Source: Craspedostauros australis
Lineage: Eukaryota
Assembly: GCA_030167865.1 (NCBI GenBank)
Contig: JALAGF010004118.1
Coordinates: forward strand, 62,001-106,049
Direction of reading: 5' to 3'
DNA length: 44,049 nt
Positions within the stretch are counted from its first letter, which is position 1; each line of letters starts with the position of its first letter. The position numbers and the translations under genes were made by a program. Below the pieces are notes generated by a model. The model was not told where the DNA came from, ran no database searches, and saw only the letters and a list, made by a program, of their open reading frames with translations. Of this stretch, positions 5,862-22,527 are shown piece after piece.

Positions 5862-6673
5862 TTTTCGTTGGAATTAGAGGGTGGTGTTGGATGGATGGGT
5901 CGATGTTGTTGTGGCTACTCTCCACTGATGTTGCTGATGGTCTTTCTTGGTGAGGTGGAGATGGTCATGGAAGAGAGAGAGAGAGACGTTGCGCCGCTTC
6001 GTTGGGCTTGTGGTTCTCAACGGCAAAAAGACTGCACAGCTCAAAATTGGTTTTCGGCCACCTCCGCCGCAATCGAACGCAAAACAACGACTGAATCGTT
6101 GTGTGTTGCGTAGATTGCCACGTGGAGGCTCGTGATATCTATGTGGTGGGACTGAAAAAGAACAATGGATCACGAGTCCAACAGAAGCAAAAAGAGGATG
6201 AACGATGATCTGCAGAGATGTGGTGGGATCCAAAAGAAGCAACCACGAGGCGCCAGCATGGGTGCCCATCACAGCTGCGTGTGGCTCGTATCCCACAACG
6301 AACTTGCCATTCATTCACCTCCATTCCACAATTCCGCAGCTGTTGTTCTGTTCCCACAACGCTGTCAGCACCAGTGTCTCAACCACTACCAGCACATTCG
6401 CACAATACGCTCGTGCAATACCAACCACATTGCCAGGACCATCAATCGATCGACCGATCTCCACGTGTCCATCGTCGCCACCATCTTGGTGCACTCTTGT
6501 GTGAGGCAACCCCCATCGCGCAAGGGAAAGCTTGGAAAGACAGCTGGATCCTCTGCAGAGAACAACTCGGTTTCTGCCTCCAAACCCGTTCACCCAAGCA
6601 GCATTCAACCAGAGTGAATCCGGAGGAACAGACACTCGGCACACGCTTGCTCCACAGATCATATTCGTCGACC

Positions 6674-9600
6674 ATGATGCGGCAAGGATCGCTTCACCGA
6701 GGCACTCGCCGAGGTCTGAGTTCGATGTTGAAGCTCACGCTGATAGCGTCGGTTCTCTTATCATCTCTCCTCTCTTCAACGACCACCAGCACAAGCAGTG
6801 GCACTAGCACCGCCATGGGCATACCATGCTTAGCATCAGCCTTCAAGCCAATGTTGCAACCAAGGATACCGCTCACCAAATTTCCAACTTTGCTGGTGCG
6901 AGGTGGCGATGCCGGCAGCACGGCCAACGAAAAGGACCTGCCCACGTCCACTCACGATGACGATGAAGACAAGGGCAACAGCGAACGTAATGGCGATGAG
7001 GAACGCAACGATGTTGGCGTTGACAAGGACGACGGCGACGATGACGGCCTTGATGGCACCAAGAACGCCAGCGAAGAGGACGACAAGAAGAAGCATTCCA
7101 GCGTCGAAGACTACGTGGCCGCCATGAAAGCCAAAGACGAGCAACAGCAACATCATCAACAGGATGATGATGCATCTCATTCCGAGTCTCAAACTCAGCA
7201 ATCGTCAAACAAGGATGATACCGAGCCCACCCACGATTCGAATGGAGGCGATCGCAACGATTCATCAGCGCCGCAGTCACATGCAGACTCGGAGCCATCG
7301 AGCAGCGACAGCAAAAAGAGCAGTGACGTGGCGGATGATGCCTCCGTCGGCGTCAAGTCGCACAAGAAGTCAAATGCAGTCGGCGACGCGGACGGCGACA
7401 GCGACGACGATGATGACGAGGATCCGGATGACAGCGACCTGTCATCAGACTTCAGCGAAGAGTGGGAAGATCTCGACGATCTTGCCCCACATCATCGCGC
7501 ATCACAGCAGTCTCGCAGTGATCAGCAGGATCTTCCAGATGACAGCTACATCATCGAACCGGAGGTGCAGCTTGAAGTCGAACTGTTGCAGAGCACCATT
7601 CCCGCTGCTGGCACTAGCAATGCGGTCAACGAAGATGCCGGCACTCGCAGCAGCGAAACGCACGACAACAAACACAGCGATGCGTACGGCAACGACGCGG
7701 ATGATGATGGCGACGAGACTGTTGCCGCCTCATCCTCATCCAAGCCCTCCAGAGCTGCCAGATCGGGTGGCGTCGGGATTCGTCTCGGGCGAGGCCGGCG
7801 GAACAGTCGTCAACGTGGCAAGAACTCAGAACGCAAGCGCCGTTCGCAGGAAGCTGTTGCGGATGACGACGATGTCAAACTGATCGAGGCCTGGATGCCC
7901 CACCTGTACTTTCCACCACGCGACAGCACCCTGTCCTACCTCGCAGACAATGGACGCATGATCGATGCCGCCTCCAAGTCACGACTGGACAGACGAACAT
8001 TGTACGGCAGCTTGCTCATGGAATGGGGATGCTCCCCGCAATCCTCGCGCAGGTCGGGTGGAGCGCGCAAGTTCTTTCCGCACAAGACGACGCAGGAACT
8101 GCAGGCGGCACTTGCCGTCGCGACGCAGCCGCACTGGCGCAAAGCTACACCGCGCACCAACGGTATCATGATGTACACTGAGCTTGACAACAAGGACAAG
8201 AACAAGCCCATGACATTGAGCATGCAGGAAACTGTGGCCATGTCTTTGGTAAGTTATGCACGAGTGATGCCGGAATCGTAACCGCGAAAGCACCTATCGT
8301 ACAGATGGAACATAATGCTCTCGTTCGATGCCAACTAACACTATTCCGCTTGTCGTTTCATTTCAATTCATGCCTTTTGTTGGTGAATGGTTCTTCTGCC
8401 GATGTCGCATTTGGCGCTTACACGATTGATCACGCACATGCGCATTCCAAACAAACCTGCACAGGCACACTCAATGGGCTGCGGCATGCTCATCCTGGAT
8501 GATCAAGTGCTGAACAAAGTGCGGCAGAAGATGGTCGAAGCAGGCGTGAGCGACGGCAAGTTGAAACCTGCTTCACTGTTGAAAACTCTGCTCAACGCAG
8601 CAAAGGCAGGCAAGGTTGCGCAACCACCGACGGCACGAGCCACTGCCTCCATCTCATCGTGCATGCGGCACGACATGTCGTGTGGTCTGGACGATCAATA
8701 CGACGAACGGGCCATCGTCAGTATGGAGGCCATGGTGGAATGGGAGGCTGCAGAAACGAAAGAAGATACGAAGGCCAACGCATCCGAGGACAACGCATCT
8801 TTGCCACTCCCGCTGGTGATCTTCATCCGCACGTCGTCATCTGGCTCCTTGCTCAAGAGCAAGACCGCCATGGAACTTCTCATCCACGAGTGCACAGCCG
8901 ACGACAGTATCCATCTCGTCACGCTCGGCAAGGGCATCGACGAGTGGACCGATTCATTGCCACAGAATCGGAACAGCCACAGTGAGGTGGGGCAAGGACA
9001 GGATATGAGCGGTTCCTTGGGCCAGACGCCTTTCGACAACGTGGGAGGTTCCAACGGCAACAAACAAGGACAGTTTGGCTTCACTTCCCAACACAACAAC
9101 GCGTCAGGACAGAACGATCCACCTGGTTCACGCCGGTTCAACATTTTCCTGTCCCGCACAACCGACGCCAACGGTCATCTTGGAATCTTTGGTGCAATCG
9201 CGCCGCCTCAGGTCGGCAACCTGTTCCCCCACATGATGGCCATGCAGACGCGCGAAAAGCTGGAGCGACAGCACATTGAGAATTCGCCAGCCAAGGAAGA
9301 GCTGGAACGGTGGCAGAGGATGATGGAGCAGCAGCAGGAGGGGAACGATCACATAGACCCCACCCAAATGTCCTCCGTCCGCTTCTTCAACGCTAGCCTG
9401 TCCATCGGGTACCAAGACCAAAACGAAGACGAAGGCAGCCGCAACTCGCGCAGTGAGCAGTACGATGAGCAGCACGATGATCAAGATCAGACCGGCTTCC
9501 AACCGTGGGCGCATCCGCCACCGCATATCGTGGAGAAGGCATTGCAGCACTCGATGTCATGGATATTGGACGATCTATCGCAAATTGGCAAGGACGAGCG

Positions 9601-12062
9601 CGACGAGAGATCGGAGCAGCCTCCAAACGTCGTTTCACCCAAAGATCTGTCTCCCGATTTCCACACGGCGTTTGCGCAGGTGTTGCGAACCGAGAATCTC
9701 CGTCGTGGCATCGCCGAGAATTTGTCGCGTGCCGCACCAGCACTCTCTGATCCCAAATGCCATGGCATCATGCTCAGCATCTTCGTTCCGCCGCAGGGCA
9801 CCGGACAAAGAGGAAGGATGCCCACGGCACCGGGCCAAGGCAACAACAACGGCAACGCGCCGAACAACTCCAACATGAACGGTTGGTTCAACGAAGTGTT
9901 GCAAAGCCAGGACAAGGAGCGCAGGGATGCAGTCGCCGACTCCGATGACGGCAGCGACGAGGAAGAGTCGGCCAAGGACCGGCAAAAGCGAGTGAGAACC
10001 ATGGCAGCGGCTGCGGCTGTGATGGCGGCCAACCAGGCCCAGACGAACGACGCCCGTGATCGGGCCAAGTCATCTGAAAACAAAGCCGAGCGCAACCTCG
10101 CCAAGCTGGAATCCATCTGCCGTCCGATCGATATTGACGTCCCCACAGACCCTGTGCGTGCCAAGTCATGGGAGGCGTGGATCAACCGAGAGCGTGGGTC
10201 CATCGTGTTCCGCATGAATCGGCGGGCGCTCAGCGAAGAATTGATCCAGCATATGCTGGCCTTGGAACTGCACACGGGTACGCGGGGCGCGGGTTCTGCA
10301 TTGCGCCAAATGCTCAGCGTCCGCGATTTGGAGTCGGACATGGACAGAATCGTCCGATGTGCCGTGGAGCTGGAGGCATCCAAGGGTTTGAGGAAGCACG
10401 AAATGCCAAACACCGCCCACGAGAATGACCTGAAGCTCCAGATCGACGAGTCATTGATTCAATTGAATCTCAATGTTGACGATGACGAATGCGGACCTGA
10501 TGGTACTCAAGGAGGTACTTCTGACAACAGTGACGGAGCCACAGAAGCCGCGTCAACATCAAGCACGGGAACAGATACATCCGAACAACGCGATGACGAC
10601 AAGCAAGATGCCAAGTCGGGGCCATCGAATTGGCAATACCTCCACCCATCCAGTTTGGAGTCCGCGCTGACGATGGTTTGCCAGATCAGTCCCTCTCCAG
10701 CAGGAGGTCTGTCGCTTTCCGGTTCCATTGCCGGGGCTCACCGCAGCCGAGACGAAATCTCGAACCTGGCGCAGGACAAGCACGAGCGCGCCTTGGTTTC
10801 GCAAGTTGTCTCGCCGCAGGACATTGGCGTCACGTACGACATGATCGGTGGACTCTCGCAGGTGAAGGAGCTGTTGCGACAGAGCATCACGTACCCGCTC
10901 AAATTCCCGCATCTCTACAGCGAAGGTATTGCGCGAGAAGCAGTGAAAGGAGTCCTGTTGTTTGGGCCACCAGGTAAGTTGGTGCTGCTGCTATTGCTGC
11001 TGCTATATTTGTGTGGGCTTGCTCTGTTGTGCTCTACTCCCTTGACCACAACGTGCTGAGGGAACATGCCATAAAACTCGCGCTTACACTTGTTGAGAAT
11101 GACCTTGTGGATTTGCTGCCGACCCGATGCCATCCTGCTCGCGCGCTGCCTTGTTGTTGATGCACACGCACAAACGGATGCACATGTGGATACGAATGCT
11201 CGACCGCATTGCATCACGCCATGACCTTGTGTGCGCATCACATTGCGTCACGATAGGTACGGGTAAAACGATGCTCGCCAAGGCCGTCGCAACAGAGGGC
11301 GGCGCAAGCTTCTTGAGCGTCGATGCCTCCTCGGTGGAGAATAAGTGGCTCGGAGAGTCTGAGAAGAATGCCAAGGCCGTCTTCACCCTCGCACGGCGAT
11401 TGGCGCCATGCGTGATCTTTATCGACGAGGTGGATTCTCTGCTCTCCAGTCGAGAGGGCAGCTCCGATGATTCGGCGCACGGCACGTTGACAAGCGTGAA
11501 GACGACGATGATGAGCGAATGGGATGGACTGAACTCCGGCACCAACGGAAACGGCGAGGCTGGATCCGATCGCGTGGTTGTGATCGGATCGACCAACAGA
11601 CCATTTGATCTGGACGAAGCCGTGTTGAGACGATTCCCACGCAGAATCCTCGTGGATCTGCCAGACATGCAGAGCCGCAAGGAGATCCTGGAGGTGACGC
11701 TGGCGGAAAATCGTCTGGATCCTGCAGTGAACCTGACGGAGATCTCGGAACGCCTGGATGGCTACACAGGATCCGACATCAAGGAGGTGTGTCGAGAGGC
11801 GGTCGTGCAGATCAGCCACGAGCAGGCCAAGCTGCTGGATCAAGGATTTCTGGATGCGGAGGAAGATATCACGGAGGGTTCGCTGCAGCGACTACGACCT
11901 GTGACGACGGCAGACTTTGAGAGTGCGCTGACCAAGCTCAAGCGCAGCGTTTCGGAGAAGGGACGCGAGCTGGCGCGGGTGTGGGAATGGAACGACGAGT
12001 ACGGTGAGATCAAGAAAGAAAAGACGAACAAGATGCCCCATCTCATGAACATGTACCTGTAG
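6674..12062 (+). CDS. Large AAA+ ATPase of the Msp1/ATAD1/spastin clade (plant-type long form), 3 exons (6674-8248, 8465-10973, 11257-12062; ~1629 aa)
   Basis: The spliced Walker A reads GPPGTGKT. Also present: pore loop NKWLGE, Walker B IFIDEVD, 'MSEWDGL', 'TNRPFDLDEAVLRRFPRR' and C-terminal 'WNDEYGE'. The exon 1/2 junction gives 'QETVAMSLAHSMGCGMLILDD', resembling the degenerate first module of plant long AAA proteins. The start may instead be ATG 6677 or 6725. Confidence 0.88.
8249..8464 (+). other. Intron 1 of AAA ATPase (phase 0)
   Basis: GTAAGT donor at 8249 and ACAG acceptor ending at 8464. Both flanking ORFs share a frame. Confidence 0.8.
10974..11256 (+). other. Intron 2 of AAA ATPase (phase 1, interrupts Walker A)
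   Basis: GTAAGT donor at 10974 and TAG acceptor ending at 11256. Splicing rebuilds GPPG-TGKT. Confidence 0.93.
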
Positions 12063-12930
12063 ATCGGAGCGCATCCCGAAAGCACGTCACCATCTATTCT
12101 GCCAAGCAGCGAGGATGCGAGAGATTGCTACTCCACCCTCGCGGTATGCGGAGCAGAGCAGCACAAAGTCGTGCATTGTATAAATATCAATCAACCTTCC
12201 AACCAAGCTTCTCGAGTCACTCATGTGGAGTCCTCCTATAATAGCAAAGATAGAATATATGGATGCCCTGTGTAATTCGACATGATGAAGCATGCTTTGA
12301 AGTGTGCCTCTGCCAGCATCTCTCTCCCTTTGCGGTAACAAGGAGAAGCGTGATCTGCCCACATCGGTCGTTCGCCAAGGTAGCTAAAGTGACGCTGGAC
12401 GAATACGGCGAATTTCATGTGCAGAGTGTCCACTGGAACAAGTACGACATTCTTCGTGATTGATGGTAGATTTTGGACACCTCATCAGCAATGGTGATTT
12501 TCAAAAGAGCCAGTTTCCTCTTTGTGATCGAAAAGCTGGAACGCTTGTTCGACGGCCCAAACCACAACGGCGAACGCTGCACAAGACACACGCACAAAAG
12601 ACCCACGATCGTGTCTTTCCACGCCTATTTTTCCGCAGAAGCGACAAAAATCGTGGAAGGCATCCGACGAGCACAAACCCAAACCAGGCCAAGTGAGAGA
12701 CAAGAGGGGGCATCTCCTTGCTGTATTGTATCGCATTGCATTGTGCATCACGACGTAACGAAAGGGACTCAGCGCTGCTCCCTTGTTGCTGGCACCGCGA
12801 CGGTTGGGCAATTGCGACTCTGCAAGGATACCAAGCAGACCAACAGAGACCTACGTGCACAATCACCGTAGTAGCGCTTGGTCGCCCACAACGCAAACAC
12901 CACAAAACCACCATTGAAGCGACCGACAAA

Positions 12931-15900
12931 ATGGCGTCTCCGGAACACTCGCAATCGTACTCGGATGACGACGAAGTCGATGATGGACAGAGCTACGATT
13001 CGGACGAGAGGAGCTTCTACACGGACGAAGAAGGCAGTCAGGCATCGCGGCGTCGGCGGCGGCAGCAGCAAGCGAAGCGGCATCCGGAGGATGACAGAAG
13101 TGATGCATCCGGCAGCTACGATAGTCGTGGTTCCGAAGGATCCTTTCAGGATGGCGATCGATCGTACTACGATGATGACGATCGATCGTACCGCAGCGAC
13201 GACGACAGATCGTACAGAAGCGGCGATGATAGATCGTATCGCAGCGAAGACGACGACAGGTCGTACCGAAGCGAGGATGACGATCGATCGTACCGAAGTG
13301 GCGACAGCCGATACGACGATGGTGGCAGTCGGGGCTCCCAGTCCTTCCGAGATAGCGAGCGGTCGTTCCATAGCGGAGACGATTCGCAGCCGTCGCCCAG
13401 ACGCGCAAGCAAGGATGACGAGGACTACGACGAAGATTACGACGACGAATTCGATGACGATAGCTTTGCCAACGATCGAGGCGACGACAGATCTCAGGGC
13501 AGTTACGACAGTCGCGAAGACGACTACGACGATGACGATGGCAGTAGACGGCGAGGTGGGCCCGCGAAGAACGATAGTGGCAAGAAGAGCGGCGGCAGCG
13601 AGAAGGAAAAGGGCGAGGGCATGAAGAAGGGAGATGATAGCGCAGGATCCTTAGACATCAACGCACCGTCATTCCATGACGACAATGAGGATTCGTTCGG
13701 AAACGAGCACTCGTACGGAGATGATCGTTCGGACAGAAGCGATCATCCCAGAGAAGACATGAAGGAATCGCAGCACTCGTCCTACCACTCTCGCAATTCG
13801 GGGCGCGACAGTTACCACAGCCGCAGCAGTCGAAGCGGAGCAAGAGACCGCGATCATGATGACGACCGCAGCGACCGGGACTGTCCAGATGATCAGTCTG
13901 ACGCCTTCGACGACGACGACGACCGATCCTATTTCGATGGTAGCGAAGACAGCGAGTCTCAGCAGTCGTTTGCGACGGATGAAGACGAGTTCCTGGCGAA
14001 TGCGCGCGACAGGAAAGCTGCAAGTCCCACGGGGAGTAGCCGGCGGCGTGATGACGAGGATGGCGCAAGTGATCGCGACCGTGATGCCAACGACAACGGC
14101 GATGGCGATGACAGATTCGATAGCCGGCATTCAGCTGGCTCCTTTGGAGAGGAATCGTACGGGGACGAGGACTCTCGATCTGGCCGAGACTTTGCCAGCC
14201 CGAAGCGAGCAGATGAAGGCTTCCATGATGGCAGCGATCGATCGGATTCACGCGGAAGCAAGTATTCGGATCGTGATGACTCTTACCGAGATGACGGGAG
14301 CTTCACGTCAAATCGAAGCCTCAGCAAGCAATCCCATGCATCTGGTCAAAAGACAGCGGAAGCTTCGCACGAGGACGGCGTGCATAGTTCCCATCGCTCA
14401 TTTGCAGACGCCAGCAGCAAGGGTCGTTACGAAGATAGCTACCACAGCGAAGAAGATAATGAGGCTTCTCGCAGCGAACGCAACGAAATGCCTCGTGATA
14501 ATGACCCGTTCATGGGATCTGGCACCTCCTTCAGTAATGCCAGCTTTGGTGGCAAGAAGAACGACTCTGTGTTCCAAAAATCACCAGAGGCCTCCAATCA
14601 ATCAAGCGCCGATTCCGACGGTTTCGGGACACCTTCTGCTACCAAGGCGGCGCAGATCGACGGCGATGATAGCAGTCGAGGGGATGACTTCGATTTCGGC
14701 GCGAAAGATGGAGGGTTTGGTGATGATGCAGCCTTCCCAACGAACGCAAGCTTTGGTGATTCAGAACACACAGAAGACGAGGACGGCAGCAAGGGTGATA
14801 ATGGCATGGGCAAAAGCGAAGGAAGCAGCAGCAACCACGATGGCGACGCCAGCGATGCTGACCACAGCGACGACGATGATGCATTCCGGTCCACGAACGA
14901 TGACTTCGCAGCGCCAGTCAAGACGCATGAAGATAGCGACGACGATTCTGCATCAGCTGCCAAACCTGACGCCGATGCTTTTCAATTCGGAAACGATTTC
15001 GATGATGGCGCGTTTGACGACGATCCCTTCGGTAGTGCCAGCGAGAATCAAGACCAGCGCAACGGTGACAACGATGGTGAGGATGAAGCCAAAAGCAAGA
15101 GCAACGGCAATGTGGCGAAAGACGACGGTCAACAGAATGGGTTTGGTGCCACCGACTTCTCTAGCGCTGGATTTGGGAGCGATGCGTTCTCGGATGCGTT
15201 CGATAATGACCCCTTCGCAAATGCCGATGAAAAGAAGAACGATACAGACGAGATGAGTGGTCGTGGCGGCAACGACGGCGATGATCCCTTCGGGAAACAG
15301 TCAGATGACGACTTCTTCTCCAAGAGCGGGTCACAGGCGTTCGGCACAGAAGGCGATTTCTTTGACGACAAGAAGCAAAATGACGATCCTTTCGCGAACG
15401 ACGATTTCGCATTCGACGATGCTTTCGCCGCAGAGCCGGCCAAGACAACTGCGCCTGATGCGAGCGACCATGACAAACCTGAGGAAGATGACCAATCTGA
15501 GCAAGACGATCAGCCCAGTCCTGAAGACGTGCCCTCGAATGCTTCTGAATCTCACTCCGCAGGTGATAACAGCTTCTCGCAGCACATGGATGAGGATTCA
15601 TTGGCAGAAATTGACAAGGACGATGCGTCGCCGCACAGGGTCCGAGAGGAAGATGATGACAAGGCTGATCACAGAGTCGACGACGAAGCCAGCCAATACT
15701 CAGATGACTACGACAAAAAGAATGACGAGAACGGCGACGACAGCAACAAGGGCCCCGAAGGCGACCACGCCCATGACTCCTCCCCAAAAGGCAAGCAGAT
15801 TGAACAACTCACGCCGCCCACAGATGTTGACGATGGAGGTGCGTCTCCTGTGGAAACGACGGAAGAAACGGACGTCATCTCGCGAGGCTCGTCAAGATCG

Positions 15901-18900
15901 TTCGATTCCTTTGACGACAGACAAGGCAGCCGCGGACCTTTGGAAGGCGACGATGCGTCATTCCAGTCCTCTCGTTATTCACAGGATGATCGATCGGGAA
16001 GGAGTCAAAGATCTCACTCGCATTCGCACTCACACTCGCAGTCCGATTACTCAAGATCTCAAGATTCCAGAGACCAATCGAAGTACGATCAGGAAGGAGA
16101 ACGAAGACATCATGATGATCACCGCAATGATCATGACGACGATGGCGGTAGCGCATATGTCGATGAGGCTTCTTACCATTCCTCTGATCGTTCCTCGTAC
16201 CAGTCCAGATCGCATTCGGGATCGCAATCGTACGTGAATTCCCCTTCGCAGCGATCTCGTGACGCATCACCACACCAGTCACCGTCACAGCAGCCTCAGT
16301 CTCGATCTCAGTCCCCAGTGTCACGCAGTTCGCGTGGTTCGAAGTCGACTTACTCTCAGCAGCAAAATAGCGCCGCGGCTCCGCCGCTTTTGCCGTCACC
16401 TCGCGATGATTCGTCGGCGGATGACGACTCCAGTTTCAAGCTCGAAATGGAACCCGAAGAGCCAGATGAAGACTTGGAGACCTCCATTCGTCTCGGCGAA
16501 GTATTCGGAAAGCCAAATGATTTCTTTGATGACCAAAGCCGCGACAGCACGGAGGCAGACGATGCTGGCGAACTTGAGGAGGTGGAACCCGAAAACCAAG
16601 ATACTGAAGTTGACGGTGGCGACGAAGAGGACGAAGACAGCCCCGAAAAAAAGAGGAAGCCCATTGATGACGATGAAGTAGAAGAAGAAGGCGAATTTGA
16701 TGACGAGACGCGGCAGTCAAGATCTTCATCTCAATATGACGAGGTGCAGCGGCCTGAGCAACGACCGCAGACTCAGGACTCTGTTGGTTCATCATATCAG
16801 TCCAAGGGCACGTATCTGTCAGCTGAAGATTCAAGGGATAATCTTCCGCAAGGAAGCCAAACGTACAGTGACGGGGGACACGACAAGAACGATGCGACAT
16901 CTTCGCGCTACGAAGACAGCTACGAGAATAGCTACGACGATGCTTCGCGGTACTCATCAAAGTACAGTACTGCAGAATACACTGAGCAAAGCAGAGAGAC
17001 GGACGTAGAAACAGCGAGCAGGAAGAGTTCAAGAAGTTATCGATCACGAGGCAGCGACAGCGTATCCCGCTCAAGCTCGAAGAAGAGTAGGAGCAAACAC
17101 AAAGGCAAAGGGAAGACCAAACGACGCAGCAAGCCTTCACCAGGTCGCGGATCTAATGAAAGACAAGATGCTTCCGTCAATGCTTCCATCAATGGATCTG
17201 TGTCAGCAGTGCCATCGGGACAGGATGATACCAGCGTTGATGATGTCGAGTTGGCATCAGTGGAAGAAGATTCTCGCGAGATGATCGAGGACGGAGACGC
17301 GCCGCTGCATGCAGATTACTCCAACGGCAGCGAGTACGAACAGTCCATTCCACAACATGCCGAAGGTGATGGCGACGAGTACGGGACTGAAGACGATGAC
17401 AGGAGTGCGAGTGCGAGTGCGAGTGCGAGCAAAAGCCGTAGCAAGAGCAAGAGCAAGAATGCCAGCCGTTCGGGGAGGAGCAGTGATTCTCGAGCAACCA
17501 GCATGTACTCGATGGAGTCTGAGCTGCGGGAAGCATCGACGATGGACTCCCAGGGTCTTCTCGCGGCGTCTGCTGAGGATGCGCACAGCTACGTTTCAGG
17601 TGGTCGCTCGACGAACGACGCAACTGCATCCATCGCGAAGTCCTCAAAGTCATCCAAATCGAAGAGACGGAAGAAAAGAAGGAAGAAACGCAGCAATAAG
17701 AGCGAAGCGTTGATCAGCCTATCGGAGAATATCCACGAGACGATGTTGGTTATGGAGGAGGAAGCAGAGAACAAGAGCGAGTACTCCGGATCGAAGAATC
17801 AGAACGAAGACAACGAGGCACATGACCTCCTGCACAGCTTCGATGCGTTGCTTGTGGTGCTCGATCAACTGTCTGATGAACTCGAGCTGATATCCACGTT
17901 CGGGAAGTCAAAGAAGAAGAAGAACACGAGCGCGCTTGTGTCCGTTCAGGCCCTCGAGGCGGTCATTAGCTTTGATCACGTCCTCGATGAGATTTACGAC
18001 CAACTGCGACGCATCATCGAGGACTGCTTTATCGACCCACCAGATGATGAGATGGCTGACATGCTGAAACGGCTGACTGCCCTCGTGGATCTTCTGAACG
18101 AAACAACCCACAGGGTGGGAGAGAAGCAGGAATGGAACACGAGAGCGGAGACCGTGTACGTGACGCTCATCGAGCTGATGGAGAGAGAGTCGCTGGAGCT
18201 GAACTGTTACTTCGATGAGCAGGAAACTCCTGACTACGAGCTTTCGGATAGCATCTACGAGGCATGGCAGCGGTCGGAGAACAGGATGGAGCTCGACCAA
18301 TTGATGCATGCTGCCGAGCTAATCGATTTCCGCCAGATTTGCTACGAAGTGCTCATCACCATGGATCAATGGTGCCCGGATACCGATATCCTGATGGACA
18401 TCTGTGCCATTGATCCATCTCTCCTCGAGGAGGATCCCATCGACTTCTTGCCGGAGGAGGAGTTACCAGTCATCCCCGAGGCAGCGGAGAATATCCTTGA
18501 TCAGATCAACGGGGATCCGCTGCCGAGGCCGAGAGTGATGGCCAGCATCCTCCGCCGGATCCTCCCACCACGAGCCGTCGTTGACAAGACCGTCCTGGAT
18601 TACTTCACAAGCATCCGAAATACTCTCGATTGCCCCCTCGACCTTCCCATGACCAATGTCGTATCGATCACCTCAGTCCCCGAATCCTTGGACCAAGCCG
18701 ATGCGCTGGGTGTCGGAGGCGTGGGCAAGTCGACTTTGGCTGCCATGGTTGCCGCACGAGAGGATGTTCGCAATTACTTCGAGGATGGTGTGCTCTGGGT
18801 CTACGTTGGGGATACGGAGCTGAACTACAAACGCTACACGCAATGTTTGACGGAGCTGATCTCACAGCTGGATTCCCAGAACTACCCGCTTGTTTTTCCG

Positions 18901-21900
18901 GAGCTCATCCACACACCTGGCGAGCCAATGACGAAACGACGTCGACGGGAGGCTGGTTTCATGATATTTGCAAGGGACACAGTCGCCAGCATCCTCAAGG
19001 ACAAGTGCGTCTTGGTCATCCTTGACAACATCTGTTTCGAACCCGACCTGAGTTGGTTCGACTTCACCGCCTTGCCCGATGACGGTGTCGAGGACTTCGA
19101 ATCAGTCTGTGCGATTGTGGCAACCACGCGATATCGCGATCTCCTCGGGGCTGCTGATACCGTTGAAATCGACATGTTCGACGAAGCCGACGCAATCAGC
19201 CTTTTCATTGAAGAATCGGGCGATCTCTCCCACAGCCTGTTGGCAGAATCGAAGAAGGCGAGACAGATCGTTCAAGAATGCGCGAATCACCCCCTGACCG
19301 TAAAGAGCGTCGGCCGTTGGTTACATGCGAAGCACATGTCGGCTGGCATCGTGAGCGGGATCGACGAAATCCACGAGATGCTCGTGAAGTCGTCGGATTC
19401 TCCTTCCGCAGGTGATCAGGCATCGACTGACATGCTGTACGAGGTCCTGAAGCTCAGTCTATCCCCAGATGTGAATGGCAACCTAACCATTGCCGTCAAG
19501 TTTTGCCTGGCATCCTTCGTCACGGTTTTCTGCGCGAAGGAGTACGTGTCGGACTACAACCTCGTGGAACCAACGCCGCTCATACCAACGCGGATGATGG
19601 AACTGCTATTCGAGACGCTGCTGGAGCTCAACGAAAGCTCGTTGCTGAAGGAAGGCAGCCTGTTCTCGAGCCAGAAAGAGTCGGCGCGAGCTATCGTTCC
19701 GACAGCACTATGCTCGTTGGGCGTTCTGCAGCTCCACAACTTCCCCTGGTCCACGGATGGAGAAGTTCAAGAAATCCACGAGTTTTACCAGATCACTCAC
19801 TTCATCTACCAGGAGTACGGAGAATACCTGTGCAACGAAGACGAAACGCTGACGTACATCACCAAGAACGCGGAACGCGAATGGAACCGAGCATTCGTCG
19901 ATGCCTACCTGGCCGAGGTCGAGGCGTGGAATGACAACATCGACGACCCTGGCCATTCGTACGCGCTCGAGATGATGGTGGCGCACATGATCCGCGGTGG
20001 CATGCACAAGGAGGCCGCCGGTCTGCTGGCGAACAAGAAATTCGTGCTGGGGCGGTTGCTCTCCTTTGGTCGCAGGGTGACGACATCGAGGCACATCAAG
20101 GACTGCGAGCTGCTGTACAAGGTCCTTGTGGAGCACCCCGGCAAGGGCCAAGCCCGACTCGAACCTCGCAAGGTGATGAAGCAAGCGTACCGAACGCTCG
20201 GTGGTTTGCTGGCCTTCAACGATGAAAACGACACTGAAGAAGAGCTCATGCAACGCAATGACGACATCGCGTGGTCTCATTATGAGATTGGATTTTCATT
20301 GGCCGAGAAACGGTGCTGGGATGCTGCCATCGCACACTGGGAAACGAGCCACGAGCTGTTCCTGTCCACGAAGGGGCCCGTGGAGCTCGTTGCCGGCATC
20401 CACTACAGCATTGGCGTCGTTTACGCCGAGATGAACGAGTACGAGAAGTCCCTCGATTCGCTCAAGAAGTGCTTGCGGATCCGTGGCACGATCCACGAGG
20501 AGAATCACAGCCTGTACGCCCTCACGATCCAGAAGATCGGCGACGTGTTCCTTGGAATGAGCGACTACTACGAGGCGATGGAAAGCTACAAATGGGCTCT
20601 GGACATCATGTACAAGGAGCCCAGCTTGCACCGTGACCACATGGGCGACATTCTCGACAACAAGGGCGTCATCCACAAGAACAAGGGCGAGAACGAGGAG
20701 GCGTTGAAGTGCCACGAGGAAGCGCTGCGGTCGAAGCAGATCGTGTTCGGCCAGGAGCATCCTGAGCTGGCAGTCACTTACGCGCACATTGGCCGCTGCC
20801 TGTCGGACAGCGGCGAGAGAGCAAGCGCCATCAACCATTACGACGAGGCCATCCATTTGCTGGAGCTTGACCCCGAAGGAGGGGCAGAACGCGACGCTGA
20901 AATCCAGGCGATCGAAGGTATGCTCTACAATCTGGAAGAAGACGAGGAGATGAGCGTGAAGTGTTACGAGAAGGCTCTGCAGATCCTCGTCATGAAGGTC
21001 CCGTACCGGAAGGAGAAGATCGCCTCTCTATTGCATGTGATCGGCTGTATCTACCTGAAGCGTGGGGAAGCGCGCAAGGCCATGAAGCTGTTCGAGGAGA
21101 GCCTGCAGGCACGGCGCAAGGTGCTGGGCTTCGTTCATCTCGACGTCGCCAACACTCTGTTCGTGATGTCGTATCTCCACCAGACGCGCAACCGCGTGGA
21201 CAAGGCGCTGAAGTGCCTGGAGGAGGCTCTCAAGATCCGGCAGCTGCGACTGCCGCGCAGCGAGAAGGTGGCCGTCACGTACGCCAAGATCGGGACGTTC
21301 GCCAAGGAGATTGGCAAGACCCGAAAGGCGGAACGAGCCTTCAAGGAGGCGTTGAAGATCCGCACCGAGCTGCACGGCGAGAAGCACGAGGATGTGGCAG
21401 AGATCAACCAGGAGCTCGGAGATCTGATGAACGAGCTCGGCGAGTACGAATCGGCGATGGAGAACTACATGAAGGTGTTCCAGCTGCGCACGGAGCAGCT
21501 CGGGTCGGATCACATCCTGGTTGCGGAGACCTTGCACAGCATGGGCTTCACATTGCACCATCAGGGCAAGACGGATCGTGCCATCGGGTGCTTCAAGGAG
21601 AGTCTGGTGATTCGCGCGTACTACCACGGCGAGGATTCATCCGAGGTGGCAGAGACGCTGAACATGCTGGGCTTCCTCACGGCCAAGAAGGGAGATCTGA
21701 ACGACGCCATGACCTTCCTGTGGGACGCGCTGCGCATCCGCAAGCGCCACAACGACGAGATCCGTGTGTCGGAGACTTTGAAGAACATTGGCAACACCCA
21801 CCGCGAGAAGAAGGAGTTCGACCTGGCGTTGGAATGCTACGAGAAATGCCTCCAAATCCGCCGCACGGAGCTCGGTGATGATCACGAAAAGGTCGCCGAC

Positions 21901-22527
21901 GCGCTGATCGCCATGGGTAACATCCAGAACGTGATGAACCAAACGAACGAAGCCATGCGGTCCTTCCAGGAGGCGCTGAAGATCCGCACGATGCTTTTCG
22001 GCGAATACGACGAAAGCGTGGCCTTGGTGCTGCAGTACATGGGCTTAATTGAGTTCGCCGCCGGCAACCACGAACGCGCACGTGACCTGCTGACGGAGTT
22101 CATCCGCATCCGACGCGACAATAACAACCGCGACGACGGCGATTACGTGAACGTGCTGTTCACGCTGGGCAACATCCACAGGGTGACAGGCAACGAGGAG
22201 GAGGCCATCGCGAGCTGGACCGAAGCGCGCGAAGGATTCAAGGCGCAGGGCCTGGAAGAGTCGAACCCCAAGACGGCCAAGATCATGAACCATCTGCTGC
22301 AAGCCGACATGAAGGACGAGGAGGAGGACGACAAGAAGAAGAAGAAGAAGAAAAAGAAGGGCTCGAAGAAGAGCAACGCCAAAGCCAACGGGATGTTCGG
22401 AAAGGTGTCCACGAAGATGAAGGACACTAGCGCCAAAGACGACAACAAGCGCAGCGGACGCAGCAGCAACAAGAACAAACCGAAGAAGAGGAAGAAGGCC
22501 AAGAAGGGCAAGGGAATTCAACTGTAG
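12931..22527 (+). CDS. Giant NLR-like STAND NTPase: ~1590-aa D/S/R-rich disordered region + helical domain + APAF-1-type NB-ARC + ~16 TPRs + Lys-rich tail (3198 aa, apparently single exon)
   Basis: Uninterrupted ORF with first ATG at 12931. Walker A GVGGVGKST (18709-18735), RNBS-A-like 'VRNYFEDGVLWVYVG', Walker B 'VLVILDNI', sensor 'IVATTR', GxP motif 'CANHPLTV', and APAF-1 helical-domain-like 'YALEMMVAHMIRGG...LLANKKFVLGRL'. Kinesin-light-chain-type 42-aa TPRs run from ~20263 to ~22240. Confidence 0.88.
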   Translation: MASPEHSQSYSDDDEVDDGQSYDSDERSFYTDEEGSQASRRRRRQQQAKRHPEDDRSDASGSYDSRGSEGSFQDGDRSYYDDDDRSYRSDDDRSYRSGDDRSYRSEDDDRSYRSEDDDRSYRSGDSRYDDGGSRGSQSFRDSERSFHSGDDSQPSPRRASKDDEDYDEDYDDEFDDDSFANDRGDDRSQGSYDSREDDYDDDDGSRRRGGPAKNDSGKKSGGSEKEKGEGMKKGDDSAGSLDINAPSFHDDNEDSFGNEHSYGDDRSDRSDHPREDMKESQHSSYHSRNSGRDSYHSRSSRSGARDRDHDDDRSDRDCPDDQSDAFDDDDDRSYFDGSEDSESQQSFATDEDEFLANARDRKAASPTGSSRRRDDEDGASDRDRDANDNGDGDDRFDSRHSAGSFGEESYGDEDSRSGRDFASPKRADEGFHDGSDRSDSRGSKYSDRDDSYRDDGSFTSNRSLSKQSHASGQKTAEASHEDGVHSSHRSFADASSKGRYEDSYHSEEDNEASRSERNEMPRDNDPFMGSGTSFSNASFGGKKNDSVFQKSPEASNQSSADSDGFGTPSATKAAQIDGDDSSRGDDFDFGAKDGGFGDDAAFPTNASFGDSEHTEDEDGSKGDNGMGKSEGSSSNHDGDASDADHSDDDDAFRSTNDDFAAPVKTHEDSDDDSASAAKPDADAFQFGNDFDDGAFDDDPFGSASENQDQRNGDNDGEDEAKSKSNGNVAKDDGQQNGFGATDFSSAGFGSDAFSDAFDNDPFANADEKKNDTDEMSGRGGNDGDDPFGKQSDDDFFSKSGSQAFGTEGDFFDDKKQNDDPFANDDFAFDDAFAAEPAKTTAPDASDHDKPEEDDQSEQDDQPSPEDVPSNASESHSAGDNSFSQHMDEDSLAEIDKDDASPHRVREEDDDKADHRVDDEASQYSDDYDKKNDENGDDSNKGPEGDHAHDSSPKGKQIEQLTPPTDVDDGGASPVETTEETDVISRGSSRSFDSFDDRQGSRGPLEGDDASFQSSRYSQDDRSGRSQRSHSHSHSHSQSDYSRSQDSRDQSKYDQEGERRHHDDHRNDHDDDGGSAYVDEASYHSSDRSSYQSRSHSGSQSYVNSPSQRSRDASPHQSPSQQPQSRSQSPVSRSSRGSKSTYSQQQNSAAAPPLLPSPRDDSSADDDSSFKLEMEPEEPDEDLETSIRLGEVFGKPNDFFDDQSRDSTEADDAGELEEVEPENQDTEVDGGDEEDEDSPEKKRKPIDDDEVEEEGEFDDETRQSRSSSQYDEVQRPEQRPQTQDSVGSSYQSKGTYLSAEDSRDNLPQGSQTYSDGGHDKNDATSSRYEDSYENSYDDASRYSSKYSTAEYTEQSRETDVETASRKSSRSYRSRGSDSVSRSSSKKSRSKHKGKGKTKRRSKPSPGRGSNERQDASVNASINGSVSAVPSGQDDTSVDDVELASVEEDSREMIEDGDAPLHADYSNGSEYEQSIPQHAEGDGDEYGTEDDDRSASASASASKSRSKSKSKNASRSGRSSDSRATSMYSMESELREASTMDSQGLLAASAEDAHSYVSGGRSTNDATASIAKSSKSSKSKRRKKRRKKRSNKSEALISLSENIHETMLVMEEEAENKSEYSGSKNQNEDNEAHDLLHSFDALLVVLDQLSDELELISTFGKSKKKKNTSALVSVQALEAVISFDHVLDEIYDQLRRIIEDCFIDPPDDEMADMLKRLTALVDLLNETTHRVGEKQEWNTRAETVYVTLIELMERESLELNCYFDEQETPDYELSDSIYEAWQRSENRMELDQLMHAAELIDFRQICYEVLITMDQWCPDTDILMDICAIDPSLLEEDPIDFLPEEELPVIPEAAENILDQINGDPLPRPRVMASILRRILPPRAVVDKTVLDYFTSIRNTLDCPLDLPMTNVVSITSVPESLDQADALGVGGVGKSTLAAMVAAREDVRNYFEDGVLWVYVGDTELNYKRYTQCLTELISQLDSQNYPLVFPELIHTPGEPMTKRRRREAGFMIFARDTVASILKDKCVLVILDNICFEPDLSWFDFTALPDDGVEDFESVCAIVATTRYRDLLGAADTVEIDMFDEADAISLFIEESGDLSHSLLAESKKARQIVQECANHPLTVKSVGRWLHAKHMSAGIVSGIDEIHEMLVKSSDSPSAGDQASTDMLYEVLKLSLSPDVNGNLTIAVKFCLASFVTVFCAKEYVSDYNLVEPTPLIPTRMMELLFETLLELNESSLLKEGSLFSSQKESARAIVPTALCSLGVLQLHNFPWSTDGEVQEIHEFYQITHFIYQEYGEYLCNEDETLTYITKNAEREWNRAFVDAYLAEVEAWNDNIDDPGHSYALEMMVAHMIRGGMHKEAAGLLANKKFVLGRLLSFGRRVTTSRHIKDCELLYKVLVEHPGKGQARLEPRKVMKQAYRTLGGLLAFNDENDTEEELMQRNDDIAWSHYEIGFSLAEKRCWDAAIAHWETSHELFLSTKGPVELVAGIHYSIGVVYAEMNEYEKSLDSLKKCLRIRGTIHEENHSLYALTIQKIGDVFLGMSDYYEAMESYKWALDIMYKEPSLHRDHMGDILDNKGVIHKNKGENEEALKCHEEALRSKQIVFGQEHPELAVTYAHIGRCLSDSGERASAINHYDEAIHLLELDPEGGAERDAEIQAIEGMLYNLEEDEEMSVKCYEKALQILVMKVPYRKEKIASLLHVIGCIYLKRGEARKAMKLFEESLQARRKVLGFVHLDVANTLFVMSYLHQTRNRVDKALKCLEEALKIRQLRLPRSEKVAVTYAKIGTFAKEIGKTRKAERAFKEALKIRTELHGEKHEDVAEINQELGDLMNELGEYESAMENYMKVFQLRTEQLGSDHILVAETLHSMGFTLHHQGKTDRAIGCFKESLVIRAYYHGEDSSEVAETLNMLGFLTAKKGDLNDAMTFLWDALRIRKRHNDEIRVSETLKNIGNTHREKKEFDLALECYEKCLQIRRTELGDDHEKVADALIAMGNIQNVMNQTNEAMRSFQEALKIRTMLFGEYDESVALVLQYMGLIEFAAGNHERARDLLTEFIRIRRDNNNRDDGDYVNVLFTLGNIHRVTGNEEEAIASWTEAREGFKAQGLEESNPKTAKIMNHLLQADMKDEEEDDKKKKKKKKKGSKKSNAKANGMFGKVSTKMKDTSAKDDNKRSGRSSNKNKPKKRKKAKKGKGIQL
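13156..13300 (+). repeat. Coding tandem repeat, 5 x (D/E/G)DDRSYRS
   Basis: Five DDRSYRS units are read directly in the translation, with different synonymous codons in each unit. Confidence 0.9.

Follow-up and report, generated by a model that had tools for sequence, protein, structure and literature searches.

Of 30 listed papers that contain the term 'DPF motif', 28 deal, by title or opening of the abstract, with endocytosis or endocytic proteins. Arrays of DPF and related D-x-F motifs bind the appendage, or ear, of AP-2 alpha as multiple single motifs that act through avidity (PMC4921775, PMC2172650), and D-x-F hooks within a disordered stretch are a pattern that binds alpha or beta appendages (PMC2172650, PMC1540706), with beta-arrestin as an example of a helical ligand of the beta2 appendage (PMC1540706). 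The mu-homology domain of FCHo/SGIP1 requires two to three DPF motifs with linkers of 2-5 residues, and the D, P and F all matter (PMC4731787, PMC4921775); the EH domain of POB1 is also able to bind DPF (PMC2238750). In diatoms, AP-2, clathrin heavy chain and epsin have been reported (PMC9765203), as have TSET with a TCUP mu-homology domain, AP2mu and homologues of Eps15 (PMC12167817), and endocytosis is of ecological relevance in the uptake of siderophore-iron and phosphonate (PMC5955625, PMC9765203). Here we describe a cluster of five DPF motifs in the long disordered region of a giant NB-ARC/TPR protein of the STAND type, encoded by Craspedostauros australis within the window, a stretch of 44,049 nucleotides (positions 62,001 to 106,049 of contig JALAGF010004118.1, forward strand). 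The motifs exceed what composition predicts, are specific in their residue order and recur in orthologues, and the module that carries them is conserved. By analogy, the array hints at a link between a STAND ATPase and vesicle traffic.

The cluster lies in a continuous stop-to-stop open reading frame (ORF) at 12718-22527 (plus strand, frame +1; 3,269 codons), and residue numbers count from nucleotide 12718. The ATG at nucleotide 12931 was taken as the start because the N-terminus it specifies, MASPEH..., resembles those of orthologues (MASPDK..., MASPRPEH...). From N- to C-terminus the protein comprises an acidic region of about 1,600 residues that is low in hydrophobicity and was judged disordered from its composition only, a polybasic patch, a helical domain, the NB-ARC domain, a linker, the TPR domain and a Lys-rich tail. 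Every string listed by the first-pass annotation, a reading of the letters alone that had proposed a cluster of endocytic adaptor-binding motifs here, was found in the frame +1 translation: the five DPF contexts, FSDAF, FDDAF, DDFDFG, FGDD and FGNDF. The gene, the module and its principal motifs are as follows.

12931..22527, plus strand: gene that encodes the giant STAND (NB-ARC/TPR) protein, taken to begin at the first ATG (residue 72) and to end with the stop codon.
14488..15429, plus strand: Phe-only acidic D-x-F module, residues 591-904 (314 amino acids).
14503..14511, plus strand: DPF 1, in the context NDPFM, residues 596-598.
15022..15030, plus strand: DPF 2, in the context DDPFG, residues 769-771.
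15187..15201, plus strand: FSDAF, an FxDxF motif, residues 824-828.
15208..15216, plus strand: DPF 3, in the context NDPFA, residues 831-833.
15283..15291, plus strand: DPF 4, in the context DDPFG, residues 856-858.
15385..15393, plus strand: DPF 5, in the context DDPFA, residues 890-892.
15412..15426, plus strand: FDDAF, an FxDxF motif, residues 899-903.

The composition of the module is distinctive. It contains 33 Phe and no Tyr or Trp, with 69 Asp (22%), 39 Ser, 38 Gly, 35 Ala and 11 Pro, and five of the 11 Pro fall within DPF. Leu, Ile, Val and Met together make up 2.5% of the residues, and 81 Asp and Glu give a net charge of -58. A D-x-F motif accounts for 17 of the 33 Phe (the five DPF and 12 others), and eight of these 17 are followed by Gly or Ala. 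The linkers between successive DPF motifs are irregular, at 170, 59, 22 and 31 residues.

The DPF cluster is clearly non-random, beyond what composition can account for. Shuffling the module yielded a mean of 0.256 DPF by chance, and five were reached in none of 5,000 shuffles and in one of 400,000 in a larger run. When the whole disordered region was shuffled in blocks of 60, 100 or 200 amino acids, five DPF were reached in 1, 0 and 0 of 5,000 replicates, respectively. The five DPF are accompanied by no copy of any DPF anagram in the disordered region, no sixth DPF occurs anywhere in the 3,269 residues, as the first-pass annotation had held in part by confining the motif to this cluster, and the six other large ORFs of the window contain none. 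D-x-F as a whole was also in excess in the query (25 against 12.9 expected; 0 of 200 shuffles reached 25). The F-G richness that had been pointed out was borne out, with 11 FG in the module against 4.0 expected, a number matched by 4 of 5,000 shuffles. The two FxDxF sites are present as claimed, but they are not enriched: two were counted against 0.74 expected, and this was equalled in 839 of 5,000 shuffles and 42 of 200 block shuffles.

Recent DNA duplication was ruled out as the source of the cluster. Tandem Repeats Finder reported nothing within 14490-15430, where direct DNA repeats are only 12-26 nucleotides long. The repeats over the DPF sites (families D3 and D9) are 15 nucleotides, about the length of a DPF motif and its nearest flanks, and the five motifs differ in their codon combinations. 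Because the repeats are this short and the codons this varied, the cluster is not the product of recent duplication.

A search of proteins of 1,797-5,721 amino acids, a range that lies above shorter paralogues, recovered 63 orthologues with 31-64% identity to query residues 1690-2500; all share the NB-ARC/TPR architecture and a long N-terminal extension. Counts out of 64 below are the query plus these 63. The named orthologues all belong to pennate diatoms (Nitzschia inconspicua, Cylindrotheca closterium, C. fusiformis, Bacillariaceae metagenome-assembled genomes, Amphora, Fistulifera, Mayamaea, Epithemia and Grammatophora). Some are transcriptome-derived (MMETSP, EukProt), which supports the presence of the disordered region and the ATPase on one mRNA. 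For each orthologue, all residues that precede the point where the BLAST alignment of the folded part begins were counted as the disordered region; together these regions hold 62,476 residues. In a FastTree phylogeny of the folded part, the query is sister to a Bacillariaceae-type clade of 28 rows (the query clade), which is in turn sister to a second clade of 28 rows (the sister clade), with seven rows basal.

The orthologue disordered regions contain 43 DPF, spread over 24 of the 63 proteins, against 10.3 expected from composition, and five proteins carry at least three. The block-shuffle null was 12.1 ± 3.5, and the highest count that any of 1,000 shuffles reached was 25. The control in which we place most trust, being immune to local composition, is the count of anagrams: 43 DPF stand against 5 DFP, 4 PDF, 5 PFD, 5 FDP and 6 FPD. 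Thus, the order D-P-F has been selected. The same count in the folded parts (91,672 residues) revealed no DPF bias, with 2 DPF, 2 DFP, 2 PDF, 0 PFD, 13 FDP and 2 FPD. Asp precedes 43 of the 97 PF dipeptides, with an Asp frequency of 0.117, and Phe follows 43 of the 251 DP dipeptides, with a Phe frequency of 0.037. Related tripeptides showed no such excess in the orthologues: NPF was not enriched (4 against 4.5-5.6 expected), EPF and SPF numbered 3 against 9.4 and 8 against 15.7, and GPF, DPL, DPA and DPS were likewise at or below expectation. The residue that follows DPF was Gly in 15 cases, Ala in 10 and Ser in 4, or 29 of 43. When grouped at 50% identity or more over 8+8 flanking residues between proteins, the 43 motifs formed 34 distinct flank contexts; shared ancestry therefore does not explain the excess. 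By clade, DPF is present in 17 of 28 members of the query clade, 7 of 28 of the sister clade and none of the 7 basal sequences. Four orthologues (P0023, P0024, P0026 and P0028) carry DPFGGDPF, in which two DPF are separated by a 2-residue linker.

A wider motif was also enriched. In block shuffles of the orthologue disordered regions (100-amino-acid blocks, 200 replicates), D-[ASGPV]-F-[GA] was counted 174 times against a null of 18.9 ± 4.2, and its proline-free form, D-[ASGV]-F-[GA], 149 times against 16.1. The reverse, [GA]-F-[ASGPV]-D, numbered 46 against 18.2. DPF[GA] alone was found 25 times and its reverse, [GA]FPD, once, against a null of 2.0 for each. Of the 63 orthologues, 45 have D-[ASGPV]-F-[GA]: 25 of the 28 query-clade members (12 of them with at least five copies), 20 of the 28 sister-clade members and none of the 7 basal sequences. 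The residue at x in D-x-F-[GA] is Ala in 48, Ser in 48, Gly in 28, Val in 25 and Pro in 25 instances in the orthologues; in the query it is Pro in four, Ser in two, Asp in two and Gly and Ala in one each, and none of the 63 relatives examined makes as much use of the proline form as the query species. In the closest orthologues, the equivalent F/D/G-rich stretch carries DAFG, DAFA, DSFG, DVFG and NDMFG instead of DPF. From these sequences, the selected unit is read as Asp-small-Phe-Gly/Ala, with DPF as its proline form.

The best-conserved instance of [DE]-x-F-G lies downstream of the module, in a linear island inside the disordered region.

16474..16536, plus strand: conserved linear island LETSIRLGEVFGKPNDFFDDQ, residues 1253-1273.

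Its consensus in relatives is S[IM]x[IL]G[DE]VFG[QK]PNELF[ED]D[FY]. G[DE]VFG is found in 29 of the 64 proteins, and those copies that sit at a fixed place lie 92-430 amino acids upstream of the folded part, in a shared S[IM]x[IL]G[DE]VFG[QK]PNELF context; in 27 of the 28 query-clade orthologues a copy lies 92-299 amino acids upstream, and in the query at 429. The island is far better kept than any DPF and is a probable site of specific docking.

No named species is represented more than once among the 63 matches within the size range searched, and the TPRs are highly conserved. Judged from these sequences, the gene looks like a conserved one-per-species orthologue and not a member of an expanding immune-receptor family. 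Where the first-pass annotation had left a choice between a guard of endocytic entry and an NTPase co-opted into trafficking, the one-per-species pattern would fit an NTPase used in cell biology better than a guard. The terminal branch of the query measured 0.61 against a median of 0.073, and its best identity was 63-64%, so the 63 relatives include no close relation of the source species. Beyond the orthologues, the module is missing from more distant homologues: none of 17 examined, detected with a profile of the helical domain, has a DPF upstream of that domain; one of them (P0068) has five D.F[GA] and the other 16 have one at most.

To account for these data, we tentatively favour an explanation by analogy that we hold to be plausible rather than probable, namely that the module is a multivalent D-x-F/DPF 'fishing line' with which the protein would catch an adaptor appendage, probably the ear of AP-2 alpha. 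Residues 591-904 would form a disordered, acidic, Phe-only line of short D-x-F hooks, read by the platform site of a clathrin-adaptor appendage, with the AP-2 alpha ear as the first candidate. Such an ear would bind the single, irregularly spaced DPF and D-x-F motifs weakly, and avidity would add strength. Within the same machinery, the TSET/TCUP mu-homology domain or an EH domain that tolerates DPF could also be the reader. Adaptor binding would tether the STAND ATPase to adaptor-coated membrane, and nucleotide-driven oligomerisation through NB-ARC would multiply the valency and could cluster adaptors. As in AP-2 alpha ligands, several D-x-F motifs lie in one disordered region (five DPF and 17 D-x-F per 314 amino acids, with disorder judged from composition). 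The alpha-ear mode is favoured over the mu-homology-domain mode because of the query linkers; the 2-5-residue spacing of the latter is absent from the query and found in 4 of 63 orthologues, those with DPFGGDPF. A further elaboration, in which the protein is a regulated endocytic scaffold of pennate diatoms whose NLR-type, nucleotide-switched oligomerisation clusters or releases AP-2 or TSET at the plasma membrane, is an unlikely one; such a scaffold would lack any counterpart among animals, fungi and plants, and the DPF/D-x-F adaptor code would then operate in stramenopiles.

Several observations weigh against an adaptor-binding function. The first-pass annotation had proposed conservation in orthologues as a check, and the outcome was divided: the motif recurs with its order in 24 of 63, but its positions are not conserved, and the 39 orthologues that have no DPF include the four closest (P0002-P0005). 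The pattern of presence and absence requires at least 12 gains or losses on the tree, which implies fast turnover. The proline position is mostly occupied by Ala, Ser, Gly or Val in the orthologues, and a Pro-to-Leu change severely reduced binding to the mu-homology domain (PMC4731787). The query disordered region contains no NPF, DPW, clathrin box or F..F...[RL], and Pfam identified NB-ARC and TPR only in the protein, with no membrane- or cargo-binding domain. Since these companion motifs and a membrane or cargo domain are lacking, the protein does not belong with the CLASP-like (classical clathrin accessory) proteins. Other appendage motifs were at chance levels. FxDxF in the orthologues (22 against 15.8 ± 3.9) was at shuffle expectation; [D/E]FxD[F/W], the gamma-ear consensus of PMC2172650, was absent from the query and found 4 times in orthologues against 3.8 expected; aromatic-G-[PDE]-[aromatic/L/M], a second gamma-ear consensus, was likewise absent from the query and found 12 times against 10.7; and the beta2-type [DE]x0-2Fxx[FL]xxxR had no match in the query and occurred in 2 of the 64 proteins. 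The suggestion that the cluster also holds gamma-adaptin ear motifs has accordingly been given up, as the strings quoted for it match neither [DE]FxD[FW] nor [FWY]G[PDE][FWYLM]. A polybasic patch resembling a nuclear localisation signal (NLS) in 44 of 64 proteins, together with the RS/RSY-rich disordered region, could mean a nuclear protein. Finally, the DPF/AP-2 code is weakly established outside animals. According to a preprint, the DPF of Arabidopsis CAP1 was dispensable for plasma-membrane recruitment (10.1101/2022.01.07.475412), and the TPLATE architecture paper makes no mention of DPF (PMC7909872).

Two further motif assignments were dropped. DFFD, considered as an FFAT-like motif, occurs twice in the query and not at all in orthologues, and LIR-type (LC3-interacting region) motifs were set aside in a segment that has three Val, one Ile and no Leu.

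The alternative that survives best, possible though doubtful, is a generic acidic-aromatic 'sticker' module that serves in condensates or fuzzy binding, resembling an acidic activation domain and perhaps nuclear, with no dedicated reader of DPF. On this account D-x-F-G would reflect a local conformational preference only, such as an Asp-Pro turn that presents the Phe. The module is indeed defined by composition (33 Phe with no Tyr or Trp, 22% Asp) more than by fixed positions, the turnover of at least 12 changes on the tree is high, and other Phe tripeptides are enriched as well (AFG 7.3-fold, SFA 5.6-fold, DAF 4.8-fold and GFG 4.2-fold); the NLS-like patch and the RS/RSY-rich flanks would also be in keeping with it. 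However, stickiness alone predicts no order specificity, and DPF outnumbers each of its anagrams by 43 to 4-6. The wider motif reaches 9 times its null against 2.5 times for its reverse, DPF[GA] stands at 25 against 1 for [GA]FPD, and a specific partner is suggested by the [DE]VFG island of about 20 residues, whose sequence is kept throughout the clade.

An intramolecular or homotypic ligand is improbable. Here the acidic Phe motifs would dock in the protein's own TPR groove, of the kinesin light chain (KLC) type, or in its helical domain, and would serve autoinhibition or bridge protomers. KLC TPRs bind short aromatic-acidic peptides, and the C-terminal repeats of STAND proteins are commonly autoinhibitory. 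The TPRs of this protein are of the TPR_12/KLC type, and the D-x-F module, the island and the folded domains are found together in the same clades. Yet the charges are alike (-58 for the module, -31 for the TPR domain and -49 for the helical domain) and offer no electrostatic complementarity, and Phe with small neighbours is unlike the Trp/Tyr-acidic pattern of KLC ligands. Moreover, the basal orthologues retain TPR and NB-ARC, yet 0 of 7 have the motif.

A domain resembling those of Phe-Gly (FG) nucleoporins, whose FG would bind nuclear transport receptors or NTF2-like domains, is very improbable. FG is enriched about twofold (module, 11 against 4.0; orthologues, 411 against 202), AFG, VFG, GFG and SFG are all enriched, and a basic NLS-like patch lies nearby. 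FG nucleoporin domains carry their FG repeats in a cohesive spacer that is uncharged or weakly charged, whereas the module, with its 81 Asp and Glu, is extremely acidic. In addition, 143 of the 411 FG have Asp at position -2 from the Phe, which points to D-x-F-G as the unit rather than FG, and FGDF occurs just five times in 63 proteins. That the cluster has no function and simply arose from low-complexity composition or from internal duplication in the distant past is likewise very improbable: the region is of low complexity and two sites share extended flanks (GAFDDDPFGSA and DAFDNDPFANA), but a single composition-preserving shuffle in 400,000 attained five DPF, the DNA repeats do not exceed the short lengths given above, the same order bias appears in 34 sequence contexts of other species, and DPF is missing from the window's six other large ORFs.

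The remainder of the protein was annotated as follows.

12931..14487, plus strand: disordered part a, acidic and rich in Ser, Arg and Tyr, with DDRSYRS repeats (net charge -72; 1.7% Leu/Ile/Val/Met; 18 Phe and 25 Tyr).
17662..17691, plus strand: polybasic patch KRRKKRRKKR, residues 1649-1658, immediately before the folded part.
17704..18705, plus strand: conserved all-helical domain, residues 1663-1996, which precedes NB-ARC and has many invariant columns.
18706..19458, plus strand: NB-ARC NTPase (Pfam PF00931, E 5.8e-16) with the P-loop GVGGVGKST, residues 1997-2247.
20215..22242, plus strand: TPR_12/TPR_10 domain of kinesin-light-chain type, residues 2500-3175 (net charge -31).
22243..22524, plus strand: Lys-rich C-terminal tail with a K9 run and KKRKK, residues 3176-3269 (net charge +20).

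Within the disordered region the aromatic residues are partitioned, with Tyr enriched in the parts that flank the DPF module and Phe alone inside it. Tandem Repeats Finder placed tandem repeats of the DDRSYRS type at 13160-13298 (residues ~148-192), and the most over-represented tripeptides of the orthologue disordered regions are GSY, SYR, RSY and YRS, with GSY counted 232 times, in 41 proteins, against 22 expected. A run of at least four Lys or Arg lies no more than 45 amino acids upstream of the folded part in 44 of the 64 proteins. In the query, KRRKKRRKKR adjoins a conserved helix (KSxALLDLVANVNDAMLxLE in relatives). By its sequence the patch could be NLS-like or could bind acidic lipids or nucleic acids, and it bears on the location of the protein in the cell. 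The basic C-terminal tail is a second basic element, at the far end of an otherwise very acidic protein.

The label of NLR-like or STAND protein that had been given to the gene product was confirmed by Pfam: a P-loop NTPase of the NB-ARC family is followed by C-terminal repeats, with TPR_12 at E 8.7e-81 in 10 stretches and TPR_NPHP3 at 125.8 bits against a cut-off of 100. The Walker A residues G1998, G2001, G2003, K2004 and T2006 are invariant across the family. A sequence search of residues 1690-2500 against the PDB returned one weak match (E 6e-4), which falls in the NB-ARC portion of a protein with an RPW8 domain. The helical domain at 1663-1996 has no Pfam family. Its AlphaFold2 model, from an alignment of 10 rows, was too weak to use (mean predicted local distance difference test score 55.6, predicted template modelling score 0.39), and Foldseek with this weak model gave no match at E<=0.001 in the PDB, only generic helical bundles. 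A profile search with the domain found 39 representatives at E<=0.001 among 1.84 billion proteins; it is a lineage-restricted candidate for an effector or oligomerisation domain.

The neighbouring genes are ordinary for nuclear DNA and encode Mpv17/PMP22, an Oxa1/Alb3-type insertase, an AAA ATPase with Vps4_C, a DUF676 esterase, RRF, a thioredoxin and GGACT. The AAA ATPase ORF, with AAA_lid_3 and Vps4_C, lies at 11127-12062 (plus strand), directly upstream of the STAND gene. Before it come an ORF of 890 codons in another frame (8387-11059), which has no Pfam match, and, further upstream, a 687-codon ORF (6218-8281), also with no Pfam match, that is rich in Asp and Ser. Possibly these three ORFs are exons of a single gene of the katanin/spastin/Vps4 type whose product has a long disordered N-terminus.

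The motif statistics are solid, and the functional link is one of analogy. If the array binds adaptor ears, it would connect two well-studied classes of protein machine, STAND/NLR-type switch ATPases and the clathrin-adaptor interaction hub, between which the papers listed by our searches make no connection; the DPF/D-x-F 'ear code', worked out almost entirely in animals, would then extend to diatoms. Even if the adaptor reading is set aside, the order-specific family motif and the conserved island provide precise targets for mutation in an otherwise featureless region of 1,600 residues. Searches of open-access text listed no paper that describes a comparable NB-ARC/TPR protein from a diatom, nor any in which a STAND protein carries a DPF array.

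Among known systems, the C-terminal array of Eps15/Eps15R is similar to that of the query in having multiple DPF in an unstructured acidic region, typically with a small residue directly after the motif. That array is a ligand of the AP-2 alpha appendage, of the mu-homology domain of FCHo/SGIP1 and of the EH domain of POB1. In Eps15/Eps15R as in the query, the dispersed single motifs fit the alpha-ear avidity mode described in PMC4921775, whereas the query linkers of 22-170 residues fall outside the 2-5-residue rule of the mu-homology domain; the DPFGGDPF of P0023, P0024, P0026 and P0028 equals the minimal mu-homology-domain unit as given in PMC4731787. Unlike Eps15, the query has no EH domain, coiled coil or UIM, it has 5 DPF as opposed to 15, and its array is N-terminal to a STAND ATPase. 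A homology search with a 327-amino-acid module among longer proteins gave 6,191 candidates and no match at E<=0.001; the module is therefore not homologous to the corresponding regions of Eps15, epsin or AP180. The 'hooks on a fishing line' model describes epsin, epsinR and AP180, which resemble the query in carrying many D-x-F motifs in a disordered stretch (17 per 314 amino acids in the query). They pair these with clathrin boxes and lipid-binding ENTH/ANTH domains, whereas the query has neither, and in the query family x is small (Ala, Ser, Gly, Val or Pro) and is followed, after the Phe, by Gly or Ala.

With ligands of the gamma-adaptin/GGA ear (GAE), the query shares an acidic, Phe/Gly-rich context but has no match to the consensus. 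With nephrocystin-3, KLC-type and brown-alga NB-ARC-TPR proteins, it shares an NB-ARC P-loop NTPase followed by TPR_12/TPR_10, and it differs from these STAND relatives in its disordered region of ~1,600 amino acids and its private helical domain. The brown-alga NB-ARC-TPR candidates are described as fast-evolving and exon-shuffled (PMC3341825), whereas the diatom gene is represented by one conserved orthologue per named species. Measured against these systems, the array is of a familiar short-motif type; the host protein and the lineage in which it occurs are new.

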